DNA of 64,000 nucleotides from an uncultured Chloroflexia bacterium (lineage in GTDB: Bacteria > Chloroflexota > Limnocylindria > QHBO01): assembly GCA_963760875.1 (NCBI GenBank), contig CAVXEH010000017.1:20690-84689 (forward strand), given 5' to 3'. The notes under the pieces are model-generated. The model saw only the letters and a program-made list of their open reading frames with translations, made no database searches and was not told the DNA's origin. The position numbers and the translations under genes are program-made. Position 1 is the stretch's first letter, and every line of letters begins with the position of its first letter. Below are positions 32,707-36,284 of the stretch, piece after piece.

Positions 32707-33678
32707 CTACTCGTCCAGGCCCGAGCGCAGGATCGCGATCGCGTTCTCCAGCTTGAGGCGGGTGATGGTGAGGTACTTGGCCAGGTTGGCCCGGTTCACC
32801 TCCGGGATCTGCTCCATCACGTCCGGATGCCGCAGCAGGTCCACGAGCTCCTCCACCGCACCGCTCAGCCTGCCCTTCGTGTCGAGCAGCGCGTCGTCCG
32901 CCTGGCGGGCGGCGGCGACGGCGCCGGCCGTCGTCCGGGCGCGCCGTCGGGTGGTGGGCGCCGGCTCCTCCCCGGCGGGCGTCTCGCCCCCGGTGATGGC
33001 CCGCAGCTTCGCGAGCGTCAGGTCGCCGGCAGCCACGCGCTTCGCGAGCCGGCGGCGGACCCGGTCGTCCGTGATCCGCATCAGCTCGTAGGCGTGGCTG
33101 ATGGTGTCTTTGCGCACGGACACGAGCTCGCGGATCTCCGGTGGGGCATCGGCAAGGCGCAGCCGGTTCTCGACGTATCCCTTGTCCTTGCCGATCTTCT
33201 GTGCGAGCTGGCGGACGGAGTAGCCCAGATCGGTCATCTTGCGGTACATCGCCGCCTCCTCCAGCGGCGAGACGTCCTCGCGCTGCAGGTTCTCGATGAT
33301 CGACACCTCCAGGGCCGTCTGCTCGTCGAACTCGACGACGATGGCGGGGATGGTCTGGCGCTCGGCGAGGCGCGATGCACGCCAGCGCCGCTCGCCGGCG
33401 ATCAGCTCGAACTGGCTGCCCACCGGACGCACCAGGATGGGCTGCAGGACGCCGTGCTCGCGGATGCTGTTGGCCAGCTCGGTGAGCGAGTCCTCCTCGT
33501 AGGAGAGGCGCGGCTGCGCGGGGTTGGGGAGGATGCGGTCGACCGCGATCTCGCGGATCTGCGCGCGGGTGGCGCGCGACTCGATCAGCGAGACGACGCC
33601 GGGACCCAGGTCCATGGCCGCCGCCTCGTCGAAGAGGCGGTGGATGTTCTCGCGAAACGCGGGGCGCTTGCTAGCCAA
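32707..33678 (-). CDS. parB: ParB/Spo0J partition protein
   Basis: PNPAQPR, GVLQPI, CTP motif IAGERRWRA, IENLQREDVSPLEEA, HTH; likely TTG start 33678 after GAGAGG (ORF extends to 33714). Confidence 0.93.
   Translation of the reverse strand: MASKRPAFRENIHRLFDEAAAMDLGPGVVSLIESRATRAQIREIAVDRILPNPAQPRLSYEEDSLTELANSIREHGVLQPILVRPVGSQFELIAGERRWRASRLAERQTIPAIVVEFDEQTALEVSIIENLQREDVSPLEEAAMYRKMTDLGYSVRQLAQKIGKDKGYVENRLRLADAPPEIRELVSVRKDTISHAYELMRITDDRVRRRLAKRVAAGDLTLAKLRAITGGETPAGEEPAPTTRRRARTTAGAVAAARQADDALLDTKGRLSGAVEELVDLLRHPDVMEQIPEVNRANLAKYLTITRLKLENAIAILRSGLDE
33103..33123. repeat. parS-like palindrome copy 1 (inside parB)
   Basis: GGTGTCTTTGCGCACGGACAC. Confidence 0.65.
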
Positions 33679-34438
33679 GTTCGACAACCTCTCGTGCCAG
33701 GTCGCGGAAGGCATGCGCTGCGCTCGAGTTCGACGCGTACTCCGTTACCGGCTTTCCGGTGAGCGGTGCCTCACCGAGCTTCACCGTGTTCTTGATCATG
33801 GTGTTGAAGACCCGTTGATCGCCCAGCTCGCGCAGGTTCTCCAGCATCTCGCGGGCAAGGACCGTGCGCCCATCGAAGAACGTGGCCAGCAGGCCCTGGA
33901 TCTCCAGGTCATGGTTGAGCTTGAGCTTGATGGTGTTGATGACCTTGATCAGCGCGGTGAGGCCCTTGATGGCGTAGTACTGGGTCTGGACCGGGATGAT
34001 CACGCGGTTGCTCGCGACCAGCGCGTTGATGGTCAGGAGTCCGAGCGTCGGCGGGCAGTCGATGATGATCACGTCGAACGACGTCTCGGCCCATCCGGCG
34101 ATGGCGTCGCGCAGCACCATCTCCCGGCCGATGGCGGTGAACAGCTCGACCTCCGTGGACGCCAGCTCCAGGGTGGACGGCGCCACGGAAAGTCCCGGCA
34201 TCTCCGTCTCCCGCACGACCTCCTCCAGGGTGGCGCGATCCTCGGAGAGGACGGTTGCCATGGATTGCCTGACGTCGGAGAGCGAAATTCCCAGGCCGAC
34301 GGTCAGGTTGGCCTGCGGGTCCATGTCGATGCACAGGACCCGGTATCCGATCTCGGCCAGGGCGCCGCCGAGGTTGATCGAAGTGGTCGTCTTGCCGACG
34401 CCACCCTTCTGGTTCGCAATGGCTATAACCTTGGTCAA
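33671..34438 (-). CDS. parA: ParA/Soj ATPase
   Basis: NQKGGVGKTT, DMDPQANLT, IDCPPTLGLLTINAL; TTG start. Confidence 0.95.
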   Translation of the reverse strand: MTKVIAIANQKGGVGKTTTSINLGGALAEIGYRVLCIDMDPQANLTVGLGISLSDVRQSMATVLSEDRATLEEVVRETEMPGLSVAPSTLELASTEVELFTAIGREMVLRDAIAGWAETSFDVIIIDCPPTLGLLTINALVASNRVIIPVQTQYYAIKGLTALIKVINTIKLKLNHDLEIQGLLATFFDGRTVLAREMLENLRELGDQRVFNTMIKNTVKLGEAPLTGKPVTEYASNSSAAHAFRDLAREVVELG

Positions 34439-34531
34439 CGCAACACCTGTGTGTGGCTCGGCTGGCGGGAGAAGGCCGCGACTGCGGTGCCGCCGATGAT
34501 AGCGGTGCCACCCAGATGCGGTCCACGAAAG

Positions 34532-34540
34532 TTATCCACA
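34532..34540 (+). promoter_or_regulatory. Consensus DnaA box TTATCCACA upstream of parA
   Basis: Exact match; degenerate TTGTCCACC at 34592-34600; parA -10 candidate TATCAT on the minus strand at 34496-34501. Confidence 0.6.
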
Positions 34541-34555
34541 AGCTGTCCCGCCACT

Positions 34556-34575
34556 GGTGTCTTTGTGCAAAGACG
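34556..34575. repeat. parS-like palindrome copy 2 (parA/tRNA intergenic)
   Basis: GGTGTCTTTGTGCAAAGACG. Confidence 0.65.
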
Positions 34576-34609
34576 AGCGCCTATACTCGACTTGTCCACC
34601 AGCATCGAC

Positions 34610-34685
34610 GGGCCCATAGCTCAGTGGTCAGAGCATCCGGCTCATAACCGGCTGGTCGCAGGTTCGATCCCTGCTGGGCCCACCA
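34610..34685 (+). tRNA. tRNA with CAU anticodon, probably tRNA-Ile2 (lysidine-modified)
   Basis: Cloverleaf with GGGCCCA/TGGGCCC acceptor stem, CCGG-CTCATAA-CCGG anticodon arm, TTCGA, encoded CCA; paired 1:72 excludes initiator; C4:G69/C5:G68 fit Ile2; TATACT at 34582. Confidence 0.92.
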
Positions 34686-34704
34686 CGCACTTCGGAGGAG
34701 ATCC

Positions 34705-36255
34705 GTGTCGACGGCGGACAAGCATGCACGCCTGGCGGCGCTGCGACGCGAGGCGATGCTCGGCGGCGGCGAGCGACGCATCGAGCAGCAGCACGCGCGC
34801 GGGAAGCTCACGGCGCGCGAGCGCGTCGCCCTGCTCCTCGACGAGGAGAGCTTCTCGGAGCTGGACGCGCTGGTCACGCACCGCGCCAGCGATTTCGGGC
34901 TCGACGCGCAACGCATCCTAGGCGACGGGGTGGTGACCGGCTTCGGTCGGATCGACGGGCGGCTGGTGTTCGTCTACGCCCAGGACTTCACCGTGTTCGG
35001 AGGATCGCTGTCGGAGGCGCACGCGGAGAAGGTCTGCAAGGTCATGGACCTGGCCATGGAGGCGGGCGCGCCGATCATCGGCCTGTCTGACTCCGGCGGA
35101 GCCCGCATCCAGGAGGGGGTCGTCAGCCTGGGCGGCTACGCGGACATCTTCCTGCGCAACACCCTGGCCAGCGGTGTCGTGCCGCAGATCTCGCTCATCC
35201 TGGGACCCTGCGCCGGCGGCGCGGTCTATTCCCCGGCGATCACGGATTTCACGATCATGACCGAGGGCACCAGCTACATGTTCGTGACCGGACCAACCGT
35301 GGTGAAGACCGTGACCCATGAGGAGATCGACTTCGAAGGACTCGGTGGCGCTCGGGTCCACAACGAGACCAGCGGGGTGGCGCACTTCCTGTCACCCGGC
35401 GAGCCGCAGGCCATGGAGCTTGCGCGGCAGATACTGGGCTACCTGCCGCAGAACAACGTGGAGCTCACCCCGCGGAAGGGGGAGTGGCAGCCACCGGCGG
35501 TGGATGGCGCGACGCTGGACGCGGTGGTCCCGGATTCGCCGCAGCGCTCGTACGACATGCACACCGTCATCCGCGGCCTCGTCGACGCCGGCTCGTTCCT
35601 GGAGGTGCACGCGCACTTCGCGCGGAACGTCATCTGCGGGTTCGGGCGGATCGAGGGACGGAGCGTCGGCATCGTGGCGCAGCAGCCGGAGGTGCTTGCC
35701 GGCGTGCTCGACATCGACGCATCCGACAAGGCGGCGCGCTTCGTGCGAACCTGCGACGCGTTCAACGTGCCGCTCGTCACGCTGGTCGACGTCCCCGGCT
35801 TCCTGCCCGGCGTGGACCAGGAGCATCGCGGCATCATCCGCCACGGCGCAAAGCTGCTGTACGCCTACTCGGAAGCGACCGTTCCCAAGCTGACGGTGAT
35901 CACCCGCAAGGCCTACGGCGGGGCCTACGACGTCATGAGCAGCAAGCATGTCCGGGGCGACCTGAACTTTGCCTGGCCGACGGCCGAGATCGCGGTGATG
36001 GGCGTCGAGGGTGCGGTGAACATCATCTTCCGCGACCGGATCGAGTCCGCCGACGATCCCGCGGCCGAGCGCGCCCAGCTCGTCGCCGAGTACGAGGAGC
36101 GGTTCGCCAACCCGTACATCGCTGCTGCCCGCGGCTACGTCGACGAGGTGATCCTGCCGTCCGAGACACGCGGCCGGCTGGTGGCCGGCCTGGCCATGCT
36201 CGAGGGAAAGCGCCAGAGCCTGCCACGCAAGAAGCACGGCAACATCCCGCTGTGA
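34705..36255 (+). CDS. pccB: Acyl-CoA (propionyl-CoA) carboxylase carboxyltransferase subunit
   Basis: [53 protein letters not shown]. Confidence 0.93.
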
Positions 36256-36264
36256 CACGCCGCC

Positions 36265-36284
36265 TGTCCGTGCGCAAAGACACC
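36265..36284. repeat. parS-like palindrome copy 3 (pccB/biotin carboxylase intergenic)
   Basis: TGTCCGTGCGCAAAGACACC, the exact reverse complement of 33103-33122. Confidence 0.65.

Follow-up and report, generated by a model that had tools for sequence, protein, structure and literature searches.

A candidate second ParABS system with its own palindromic sites, distant from the replication origin, in Limnocylindria chromosomes

The window, by which we mean the whole 64,000-nucleotide stretch of DNA that was analysed, contains a parA-parB gene pair, here called parA2 and parB2, whose reading frames overlap by 44 nt. It also contains three YGTCTTTGCGCAAAGACR-like 18-bp palindromes starting at positions 33105, 34558 and 36265. 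The genes and features of the locus are the following.

32707 to 33714, minus strand: parB2, with ParB_N and HTH_ParB domains, the motifs GERRWRA and ENLQRED, the recognition helix GKDKGYVENRLRLA and a two-helix C-terminal domain
33105 to 33122, no strand: palindrome copy 1, TGTCTTTGCGCACGGACA, inside parB2
33671 to 34438, minus strand: parA2, encoding a Soj-type ParA ATPase (255 amino acids) with the deviant Walker A motif NQKGGVGKTTT
34496 to 34525, minus strand: promoter-like sequence TGGACC-18-TATCAT between copy 2 and parA2, a consensus match only
34558 to 34575, no strand: palindrome copy 2, TGTCTTTGTGCAAAGACG, in the gap that separates parA2 from the divergent tRNA-Met/pccB
34610 to 34685, plus strand: tRNA-Met (CAT) between copy 2 and pccB, given for context
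34705 to 36255, plus strand: pccB-like carboxyltransferase gene, a syntenic neighbour outside the claimed mechanism
36265 to 36282, no strand: palindrome copy 3, TGTCCGTGCGCAAAGACA, within the 50 bp that separate the pccB-like gene from the biotin carboxylase gene
36306 to 37826, plus strand: biotin carboxylase gene, a syntenic neighbour outside the claimed mechanism

The letters at 33103–33122 are GGTGTCTTTGCGCACGGACA, those at 36265–36284 are their exact reverse complement and those at 34556–34575 are GGTGTCTTTGTGCAAAGACG, exactly as the original prediction had them. It had also noted no further copy in the 64 kb, and this was borne out by a scan with the 18-mer consensus which, allowing up to 3 mismatches, recovered these three sites and no others. 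Each of the three departs from the consensus at 2 positions, and none of 100 dinucleotide-preserving shuffles of the window gave a match at the same threshold. In the whole assembly (2,997,174 bp in 17 contigs, ~70% GC) the same three copies are the only matches with up to 3 mismatches and all lie at the par locus, so the palindrome is not a genome-wide operator. The putative site sequence, GTCTTTGCGCAAAGAC, lies within the 18-bp palindrome. Copy 2 is found 120 bp upstream of the parA2 start (34438), 35 bp from the tRNA-Met gene and ~33 bp upstream of the −35 hexamer of the promoter-like sequence, the one match of this kind detected (mean of 0.2 in shuffles). The canonical 16-bp parS (consensus TGTTTCACGTGAAACA) is absent from the window even when 3 mismatches are allowed.

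ParA2 carries its Walker A motif at residues 9–19, matches AAA_31 (4.3e-61) and is 41% identical to the canonical ParA of the same genome (ParA1). ParB2 matches ParB_N (PF02195, 2e-33), HTH_ParB (PF17762, 3.2e-16) and TIGR00180 (149.9 bits, cut-off 58.45), and its fold resembles ParB and Noc structures, including CDP/CTP-bound ParB. The CTP-binding motifs are retained among its orthologues (GERRWRA in 67 of 69, ENLQRED in 69 of 69), as is the core KDKGY[VLI]ENR[LMI]RL in all 68 rows covering that stretch, and the recognition helix is invariant. The helix-turn-helix aligns with the DNA-binding domains of Spo0J and Noc. According to the available part of PMC7383237, the switch from ParB to Noc specificity involves four positions, R173, T179, A184 and G201; alignments to Spo0J and Noc chains place K, R, D and S at these positions in ParB2. 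We take these features to indicate that ParB2 is a genuine ParB with different specificity residues. Two others were counted against the reading that we favour below: the N-terminal motif is LGPGV as opposed to LG(R/K)GL in canonical ParBs, and the modelled C-terminal domain is unlike the canonical one, consisting of two long helices (residues 263–333, block-mean pLDDT 76–86 over 271–330). Full-length ParB2 was found only in the class Candidatus Limnocylindria, and in the tree it forms a separate long-branched group apart from all canonical ParBs sampled. Since the family groupings agree between the ParB1 and ParB2 subtrees, ParAB2 looks vertically inherited across the whole class.

The same genome has a canonical parA-parB pair on contig C3, ~49 kb from dnaA, with a near-canonical parS (TGTTTCACGGGAAACA at C3:414157, 1 mismatch, the only copy in the genome) just upstream. 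The earlier statement that canonical parS is missing thus holds for the window and fails for the genome. Canonical parS sites elsewhere that are bound by this ParB had been named as an observation that would speak against the prediction; canonical sites do exist, but beside a different ParB. Between one and four canonical parS-like sites occur in 31 of the 40 related genomes searched, adjoining canonical parB wherever coordinates were compared. The two classes of site are separate, canonical parS lying beside ParB1 and parS2 beside ParB2. What had been proposed as a re-specified centromere therefore stands as a par-linked element unlike canonical parS; it lies, however, with a second ParB in a genome that retains its canonical ParAB/parS. 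In four relatives from two families parB2 and dnaA share a contig, and the distance between them is 772 kb (G011), 756 kb (G065), 1.43 Mb (G313) and 1.78 Mb (G281, ~1.29 Mb the other way). With this spacing of 0.76–1.8 Mb, ~34–42% of the genome, the parAB2 locus is not origin-proximal. To our knowledge all well-studied chromosomal parS clusters are origin-proximal, unlike the parAB2 locus. We rejected the ParB2 sites as canonical chromosomal parS on two grounds, the lack of a consensus match in the window and the distance of parB2 from dnaA.

Palindrome matches with up to 3 mismatches were found in 36 of 40 related genomes; by family, leaving out G000, they occur in 22 of 23 (f1), 7 of 7 (f3) and 5 of 7 (f2), and those of f1 and f3 lie within a few kb of parB2 where positions were listed. 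A reversed-pattern control gave one match each in 3 of the 40 genomes. Among further Limnocylindria/Chloroflexota ParB2 loci, 32 of 39 hold one to four sites, while the palindrome was present in none of 41 canonical-ParB loci of other phyla. The 97 sites collected over 43 loci occupy three fixed positions, with a few extras, and their flanks are unconserved. The positions are constant across families: the accC|pccB gap, as for copy 3 (28 of 43 loci), upstream of parA2 by 134–436 bp, as for copy 2 (30 of 43), and inside parB2. The sites are thus real, genome-unique, conserved and co-located with parAB2 across a class. The accC-pccB-parAB2 gene order is kept across families in 32 of 39 related loci, and the wider flanks contain cydABCD, the mutase and sucCD, core metabolic genes being the neighbours. 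The unknown ORFs of the flanks gave no Pfam or NCBIfam match, the flanks examined gave no sign of a gene for a DNA-binding regulator, and parAB2 has no plasmid-type replication gene beside it. In loci devoid of pcc genes (L041, L073, L075) the sites are still beside or inside parAB2, and every family with sites keeps ParA2 adjacent to ParB2.

In the f2-type clade, parAB2 encodes an identical recognition helix and the operon is without a site. The single site of this clade falls between two convergent genes, one for a helicase-nuclease and one for an MFS protein; in the one genome that has it and parB2 on the same contig, the two are 47 kb apart. ParB2 is also present, with no site found, in the f4 genomes and in two Ca. 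Limnocylindrus loci (L078, L079), and in the latter two no adjacent parA2 was found. Another Chloroflexota family (f15/g44) encodes ParB-like proteins with the related helices GKDKSYVESRL and GKHRSYVEGRL. Related palindromes accompany these genes, TGTCTTGGCGCCAAGACA twice at 66–105 bp upstream of the parA-like gene and TGACTTGGTGCCAAGTCA 9 bp past the parB-like stop codon, in what we read as an independent echo.

The copy within parB2 reads (G)TG TCC GTG CGC AAA GAC A(CC) on the coding strand and encodes V-S-V-R-K-D-T. Of 68 ParB2 orthologues, 50 have the palindrome at the equivalent codons, and the distribution of mismatches is bimodal (up to 3 in these 50, at least 5 in the other 18). Conservation at synonymous sites of the SVRKDT codons, put forward in the original prediction as a check, is strongly evident, with the proviso that these counts, like those of co-occurrence, are drawn from related, non-independent genomes: Lys is AAA in 38 of 49 cases at the site versus 33 of 650 in the rest of these genes, Val is GTG in 50 of 50 versus 287 of 1021, and Leu is TTG in 21 of 25 versus 99 of 1873. 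The Arg codon is CGC in 50 of 50 and the Ser codon TCC or TCT in 48 of 50. This codon usage argues that the in-gene copy is kept by selection on synonymous codons, and the comparisons as a whole indicate a palindrome under selection that is linked to par and distinct from canonical parS.

The locus combines the features of a ParABS system, a ParB with a CTP-binding domain and a helix-turn-helix, an adjacent ParA with deviant Walker A and three sites within 3.2 kb. It resembles the chromosomal systems (Soj/Spo0J-parS of Bacillus, ParAB-parS of Caulobacter and Thermus) in its parA-parB operon, in the ParB_N CTP-binding motifs and HTH, in the best sequence and fold matches of ParB2, which are Spo0J/ParB/Noc structures, and in having several short palindromes near the operon with one inside parB. 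It differs from them in the parS2 sequence, in the specificity positions (K-R-D-S against R-T-A-G), in the two-helix C-terminal unit, in its distance from dnaA and in coexisting with a canonical system in one genome. The secondary-replicon systems (Bsr of Burkholderiales, ParAB2/parS2 of Vibrio) likewise provide a second ParABS per cell with its own non-cross-reacting palindrome. The parS2 core fits the site grammar of the Bsr families as given in the available part of PMC5450999, namely a 16-bp palindrome whose outer arm is T-rich and whose 6-bp core (2C, 2G, 1A, 1T) has a central CG. However, in the four genomes that show it, both systems are on one replicon here, and parAB2 has no adjacent replication module and no close plasmid homologue: 4735 of the 72,556 plasmid records searched had a ParB2 match and none of these covered at least 80% of ParB2. 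As far as we know, Noc of the Bacillota lacks a ParA of its own and has sites dispersed across the chromosome, whereas ParB2 has ParA2 as a neighbour and sites clustered at its own locus. Since ParB2 scores only 183.2 bits with the NCBIfam Noc model TIGR04285 (cut-off 315) we do not consider it a Noc, a candidate identity also set aside for its adjacent ParA2 and clustered sites. The two are alike as ParB paralogues of altered DNA specificity beside a canonical ParB, with the change at the same four positions (PMC7383237, available part). KorB of plasmid RK2, a ParB-family CTPase and repressor, has the ParB fold and intergenic palindromes in common with the present system; however, the match of ParB2 to a KorB structure (8.3e-13) is far weaker than to chromosomal ParB/Noc and one of the three sites is intragenic.

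We consider it probable that the palindromes are the cognate nucleation or loading sites (parS2) of a second, orthogonal, non-origin ParABS formed by parA2-parB2. Because a lineage-specific ParA/ParB locus coexists with an ordinary origin-proximal system, the chromosome probably carries two different centromere-like sites. A ParB2 dimer would read the core GTC-NN-TGCGCA-NN-GAC through its re-specified helix-turn-helix, bind CTP in the intact GERRWRA/ENLQRED pocket, close as a clamp and slide off the site. Three to four sites over ~3.2 kb could thus give rise to one partition complex across accC-pccB-parA2-parB2, and ParA2, a Soj-type nucleoid-binding ATPase, would position or segregate the parAB2 region of the chromosome. 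The canonical ParAB1/parS would handle oriC, about one third of the chromosome or more away. We infer from the sequences that ParB2 binds the sites and spreads in a CTP-dependent manner, that ParA2 acts on the resulting complex, and that the end result goes beyond regulation to segregation or positioning.

A regulatory role is possible since two of the three sites occupy the gaps on either side of pccB and the gene order accC-pccB-parAB2 is highly stable. ParB2 might then bind the palindromes mainly as a KorB-like regulator, combining autoregulation of parA2-parB2 with tied expression of the carboxylase genes (propionyl/acetyl-CoA) and forming no segregating complex. This would suit the two intergenic sites, in the parA2/pccB divergent region and the pccB|accC gap, as well as a Pfam KorB domain score just above the cut-off (22.8 versus 22.3 bits) and the KorB structures among the fold matches of ParB2. 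It is difficult to reconcile with the codon-constrained site in the 3′ half of parB2, which has no obvious operator logic, with the retention of ParA2 beside ParB2 in all families having sites, with the persistence of sites at parAB2 in loci that lack the pcc genes, or with the f2 clade, whose site is distant from both parAB2 and pcc genes. The position of copy 2, upstream of the sole promoter-like match and not over it, is weak evidence in the same direction. On balance we regard this explanation as unlikely. The location around pccB could also point to an operator bound by some other, unrelated transcription factor, such as an acyl-CoA carboxylase regulator, and kept near parAB2 by frozen synteny, ParB2 being the presumed binder on indirect grounds. 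We find this very unlikely: the flanks examined yielded no gene for such a regulator, the genome has no other copy of the palindrome, the sites follow parAB2 where the pcc genes lie elsewhere, synonymous selection holds one of them inside parB2 and related palindromes are found beside par genes in another family.

Finally, ParAB2/parS2 could serve to partition a second, separate replicon comparable to the chromids of Vibrio or Burkholderia. G000 and most fragmented relatives have the two par systems on different contigs, and three long-read assemblies have a ~2.0 Mb contig with ParB2 and have dnaA and ParB1 on other contigs; the palindrome grammar is also like that of secondary-replicon centromeres (PMC5450999, available part). 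Against this stand the four genomes in which dnaA and parB2 share a contig, and genome G041, where the terminal part of the dnaA contig and the initial part of the ParB2 contig align at 87–92% identity, the alignment reaching both contig ends. Together with the core metabolic neighbours, the missing plasmid-type replication gene and the lack of a full-length homologue in the plasmid records searched, these observations make a chromid very unlikely.

Bacterial chromosomes are thought to use one origin-anchored ParABS acting through a nearly universal parS; additional ParABS systems, with different centromeres, have been described for extra replicons. In an entire class of Chloroflexota, abundant in soil and freshwater but uncultured, each chromosome appears to maintain two complete and distinct systems, of which the second is remote from the origin. 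Should ParB2 bind its sites, it would add to parS and the Noc site a third specificity class found in nature, based on the same four HTH positions, with uses in studies of ParB specificity evolution and as an orthogonal DNA-labelling pair. It would also offer a test case for the effect of a non-origin centromere on chromosome organisation, and a clear case of a binding site kept in the gene of its own binder by synonymous-codon selection. A bolder proposal is that Limnocylindria chromosomes are 'bicentric', ParAB1/parS being complemented by an orthogonal CTP-dependent ParABS, vertically inherited class-wide, whose centromere ~34–42% from oriC would be required for positioning or segregation of the late-replicating part; we put this forward tentatively, and with more doubt than confidence. 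On such a bicentric chromosome, parS2 inside the parB2 frame would be a self-marking device evolving under dual coding constraints. The second ParABS might be a domesticated relic of an ancient chromid fusion.

As to the parB2 gene itself, its true start may lie downstream of 33714. In several relatives there is an in-frame TGA within the N-terminal match of parB2.

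The par locus of the window carries the three 20-mers of the original prediction letter for letter, and its claim that the 64 kb hold no further copy was borne out. At up to three mismatches, the 18-bp consensus TGTCTTTGCGCAAAGACA matches the window at exactly three places (33105, 34558 and 36265, here copies 1, 2 and 3), each with two mismatches, and 100 dinucleotide-preserving shuffles of the window gave no match. Canonical parS gave none in the window at the same tolerance, as had also been stated. The same three sites are the sole matches at up to three mismatches in the whole assembly (2,997,174 bp in 17 contigs, ~70% GC, with the window at C17:20690-84689); a fourth requires four mismatches and is located on another contig. 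The letters GTC..TGCGCA..GAC are invariant across the sites, with Y/R as the outermost pair, and the 16-mer here reads GTCTT-TGCGCA-AAGAC. A relaxed pattern, GTCNNTGCGCANNGAC with one mismatch, matches as often as its control does and so does not discriminate. The sites and the genes around them are arranged as follows.

32707-33714, minus strand: parB2 (ParB_N 2e-33, HTH_ParB 3.2e-16)
33105-33122: copy 1, inside parB2, encoding V-S-V-R-K-D-T
33671-34438, minus strand: parA2, a Soj-type ParA (AAA_31 4.3e-61; Walker A NQKGGVGKTTT)
34558: copy 2, 120 bp upstream of parA2 and ~33 bp beyond the sole promoter-like match
34610-34685: tRNA-Met
34705-36255, plus strand: carboxyltransferase gene, pccB-like
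36265: copy 3, in the 50-bp gap between the pccB-like and biotin carboxylase genes
36306-37826, plus strand: biotin carboxylase gene

The outer neighbours of the locus are cydAB, cydCD-like ABC transporters, methylmalonyl-CoA mutase and succinyl-CoA ligase, and no replication-initiator or regulator gene was recognised among the genes around the sites. Core metabolism encloses the par genes: cydAB and the cydCD-like transporters flank them at 24708-30658, and the opposite flank, at 34705-42987, holds pccB, biotin carboxylase, methylmalonyl-CoA mutase and sucCD; the synteny of this propionate/methylmalonyl-CoA neighbourhood with parAB2 is very stable. Domain and family searches gave no match for the ORFs beside parB2 (31662-32456, 31338-31625, 30736-31263 and 32071-32688). 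The first of these (minus strand, 264 aa), downstream of parB2, has counterparts of 49-52% identity at the same position in relatives of family f1 only, and its true frame is uncertain given the overlapping plus-strand ORF 32071-32688. From its start at 33714 the longest parB2 ORF shares 44 nt with parA2. Its 5′ end (33615-33714) is interrupted by an in-frame TGA in 10 of the 38 relatives that gave a ParB2-type match and by a TAA in two more, so that the true start of parB2 may lie downstream, for example at the Met at residue 34.

The genome holds two ParB_N genes. The other, canonical parB1 (contig C3:412408-413457), has the helix GRSRVAVSNALRLL and a canonical-looking N-terminal LGRGLEAL; its own parA lies ahead of it and gyrB after it (C3:412408-414172), and dnaA, at C3:363903, is ~49 kb from this locus. 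Directly upstream of parA1 lies TGTTTCACGGGAAACA, which has one mismatch to canonical parS and is the only genomic match at up to three. ParB1 of this genome appears to have a single parS. Canonical parS-like sites with at most two mismatches number one to four per genome in 31 of 40 related genomes (reversed control 0) and lie within 1-2 kb of canonical parB where coordinates were compared, for example in G011, G018, G033 and G037. Since a canonical parA-parB with parS is present near dnaA, the pair in the window is an additional system, ParAB2. The original prediction of a re-specified centromere therefore stands insofar as the window carries non-canonical, par-linked sites that would belong to a ParABS of their own, but the genome retains an ordinary origin-proximal ParAB1/parS, to which this pair is added.

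The genome and its relatives were scanned as the original prediction had proposed, and in this genome all three sites lie at the par locus. Palindromes at up to three mismatches were found in 36 of 40 relatives, and the reversed control gave one match each in three genomes. Sites typically number three per genome in family f1 and two to four in f3, and lie a few kb from parB2 where places were listed. On public contigs, 32 of 39 further ParB2 loci have one to four sites each, whereas 41 loci of canonical ParBs from other phyla, covered by the same scan, have none. The 97 sites collected from 43 loci fall inside parB2 at the same codons (30), upstream of parA2 at a distance of 134-436 bp (30), in the accC/pccB gap (28), beyond accC (6) or elsewhere (3), and their flanks beyond the 18 bp are unconserved. 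Loci lacking adjacent pcc genes (L041 from G037, L073 and L075) still have their sites at parAB2. Outside the class, one or two matches with at most two mismatches occur in 13 of 268 sampled Chloroflexota (control 2/268).

The synonymous-site test proposed for the SVRKDT codons revealed a strong codon bias. Among the 68 distinct ParB2 coding sequences covering the in-gene region the distribution is bimodal, with 50 matching the palindrome at three or fewer mismatches, 18 having at least five, and none between. The orthologues without the site carry other peptides (VAQRYDT, VAARRDT and others), and S-V-R-K-D-T is thus not required by the protein.

Codon use at the in-gene site and elsewhere in the same genes
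Lys: AAA in 38/49 at the site, 33/650 elsewhere
First Val: GTG in 50/50 at the site, 287/1021 Val codons elsewhere
Arg: CGC in 50/50 at the site, 865/1819 elsewhere
Ser: TCC or TCT in 48/50 at the site, 226/932 elsewhere
Leu, where present: TTG in 21/25 at the site, 99/1873 elsewhere

Fisher values overstate the significance of these differences because the sequences are related; their direction and size are plain. The half-sites anticorrelate and compensate for each other: Lys AAG accompanies a perfect left half (TCT TTG) in 8 of 11 cases and Lys AAA an imperfect one in 36 of 39, and a palindrome perfect throughout is rare in the gene (2/50 orthologues). Judged by codon use, the in-gene copy is under selection at the nucleotide level. 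We are almost certain that the palindromes are genuine DNA elements, unique, conserved and under selection, that are linked to parAB2.

ParB2 retains GERRWRA in 67 and ENLQRED in all of 69 orthologues. Among solved structures it is closest to Thermus Spo0J (4.8e-42), followed by Noc, Bacillus Spo0J and Caulobacter ParB, with which a fold search agrees, and the KorB structure is a far weaker match (8.3e-13). The helix core KDKGY[VLI]ENR[LMI]RL is found in all 68 rows covering the region, and this invariance of the recognition helix leaves no room for covariation between HTH and site within the class. According to Jalal et al. (PMC7383237), residues R173, T179, A184 and G201 of Caulobacter ParB versus Q, K, K and R of Noc set the preference for parS or NBS. 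In the Spo0J and Noc chain alignments, from which the equivalent columns are inferred, these positions read K (GKDK), R (ENR), D (RLAD) and S (TISHAY) in ParB2. Pillet et al. (PMC5450999) describe a grammar common to the centromeres of Burkholderiales secondary replicons and canonical parS, namely palindromes of 16 bp that are T-rich in the outer arm and whose six-bp core comprises 2C, 2G, 1A and 1T with CG at its centre; the 16-mer here (the putative parS2) fits this grammar. The AlphaFold model (mean pLDDT 74) has a confident ParB_N and HTH body, disordered residues 1-48 and 244-265, and a C-terminal pair of long helices (residues 263-333) that differs from the canonical C-terminal domain. 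A complex prediction for two copies of ParB2 258-335 gave a median score of 0.23 against a mark of 0.42 and counts neither way. Where canonical ParBs have LG(R/K)GL, ParB2 reads LGPGV. From its sequence, ParB2 looks like a CTP-switch ParB with a new DNA-reading head, and it is probably the protein that binds the palindromes.

The closest public contigs are labelled as MAGs of Candidatus Limnocylindria, Limnocylindrales or Chloroflexota. A search of 39 relatives gave ParB matches in every one, and 38 combine a ParB2-type match (50-92% identity, nearly full length) with the canonical type; G022 (81% complete) showed the canonical type only. When the HTH and C-terminal half of ParB2 were used to query 300 sampled Chloroflexota genomes, strong matches (best E at most 1e-29) were confined to the window's class (f1 14/14, f3 15/15, f4 2/2, plus this genome); other classes gave partial weak matches only (20 genomes, best 1.7e-14). 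One match covers nearly the whole query in most of the strong cases, and it is split into two pieces in G029, G031, G039, G273 and G305. A maximum-likelihood tree, built quickly from 68 ParB sequences, unites the 16 ParB2 rows in one group on a long branch (SH-aLRT 100), and groups the 11 Limnocylindria ParB1 rows (98) nested within the canonical ParBs of other phyla; the two subtrees agree in family groupings. Being unrooted and without plasmid ParBs, the tree carries no claim on the origin of ParB2. A plasmid origin was considered and rejected, as 4735 of 72,556 plasmid records match ParB2 with none covering at least 80%. The tallies and codon counts include the unpublished genomes G010, G020 (loci L010, L017) and G300, on which alone we base no claim.

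Origin-proximal clustering of the sites, for which the original prediction had proposed a test, was not found. In the four relatives, from two families, that have dnaA and parB2 on one contig, the two genes are 756 kb to 1.78 Mb apart.

Separation of dnaA and parB2 (genome sizes used for separations are rounded)
G011: dnaA 1,740,533; parB2 968,546; contig 2,238,515 bp; 772 kb, 34%
G065: dnaA 776,922; parB2 1,533,257; contig 1,867,267 bp; 756 kb of ~2.1 Mb
G313: dnaA 1,938,032; parB2 507,033; contig 2,099,827 bp; 1.43 Mb of ~3.8 Mb
G281: dnaA 702,362; parB2 2,485,956; contig 2,693,466 bp, with 380,222 bp more on a second contig; 1.78 Mb apart directly, ~1.29 Mb around the other side

We conclude that both par systems share a replicon and that parS2 lies outside the origin domain in these four relatives. 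GC skew (contigs C17 and C3) and gene-strand bias show no clear switch, even at dnaA, so position is given as distance to dnaA. In G041, a two-contig MAG, 5.5 kb at the end of the dnaA contig align at 87-92% identity with 6.2 kb at the start of the ParB2 contig (L133:6515-12000 versus L130:1-6161), up to both contig ends. This overlap suggests adjacency or a repeat; it would stem from strain mixture or from an assembly that broke within a diverged repeat.

The placement of the sites is not the same everywhere. The f2-type clade (five public loci and the f2 genomes) has parA2-parB2 with the same helix and no site at the par operon. Each of six f2/f5 genomes examined has one site, in a convergent gap between AddA/UvrD-PD-(D/E)XK helicase-nuclease and MFS genes near rmuC (L035:5956, L036:5913, L037:5773, L038:6014, L039:5925 and, found by a degenerate pattern, G034:C4:6504); in G026 the convergent-gap site is 47 kb from parB2. 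A further G034 match at 4064 was dismissed as a chance match within the helicase gene. At L038 a longer inverted repeat (~48 bp) is centred on the site. The equivalent helicase/MFS gap of our genome has no site. In the f4 genomes G031 and G297 and the Ca. Limnocylindrus loci L078 and L079, ParB2 is present and no site was found; at L078 and L079 an adjacent parA2 was likewise not found. As these f2 and f4/Ca. Limnocylindrus exceptions show, not every lineage with ParB2 has the three-site architecture.

They also bear on the main rival explanation, in which the palindromes act chiefly as operators. The exceptions show that sites can do without a place in the parA2 promoter, and this speaks against autoregulation pure and simple. 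A transcription terminator was rejected for copy 3, where the one terminator-like match is no more than shuffles yield and the 7-bp stem of the palindrome is AT-rich and lacks a T-run. Sites of inversion or recombination were likewise discarded: copies 1 and 3 form an exact inverted 20-mer in this genus, yet are unlike in other genera, and inversion between them would also sever parB2. On balance we favour, as reasonably likely, the full reading, in which the palindromes serve a second, orthogonal partition complex as its loading sites. ParAB2/parS2 would then be a ParABS with a re-specified centromere, unusual in that a whole class has it as a second system on its main chromosome, at a distance from the origin. 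Literature searches on Limnocylindria and ParB, a second ParABS and ParB2/parS2 returned no description of this system; the first led to unrelated work, and the papers listed for the last two all concerned multipartite genomes, plasmids or labelling tools.

Related palindromes occur in the Chloroflexota family f15, genus g44, where ParB-like genes have helices related to that of ParB2, GKDKSYVESRLALL and GKHRSYVEGRLALL, and the neighbouring ParAs, seen at the parAB loci L154 and L156, are extended at the N-terminus. The perfect palindrome TGTCTTGGCGCCAAGACA is present twice in G146 (L152:5087 and 5126, contig C86), where the copies are spaced by 39 bp and precede a parA-like gene by 66-105 bp, and once in G067 (L153:4963, contig C317); TGACTTGGTGCCAAGTCA sits 9 bp past the stop codon of one parB-like gene (L155:2411, G146 contig C75). 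These sequences would fit a wider ParB subfamily reading palindromes of the TGTCTT...AAGACA type. By eye, an XRE-type HTH-like ORF was also seen in the L152 neighbourhood.
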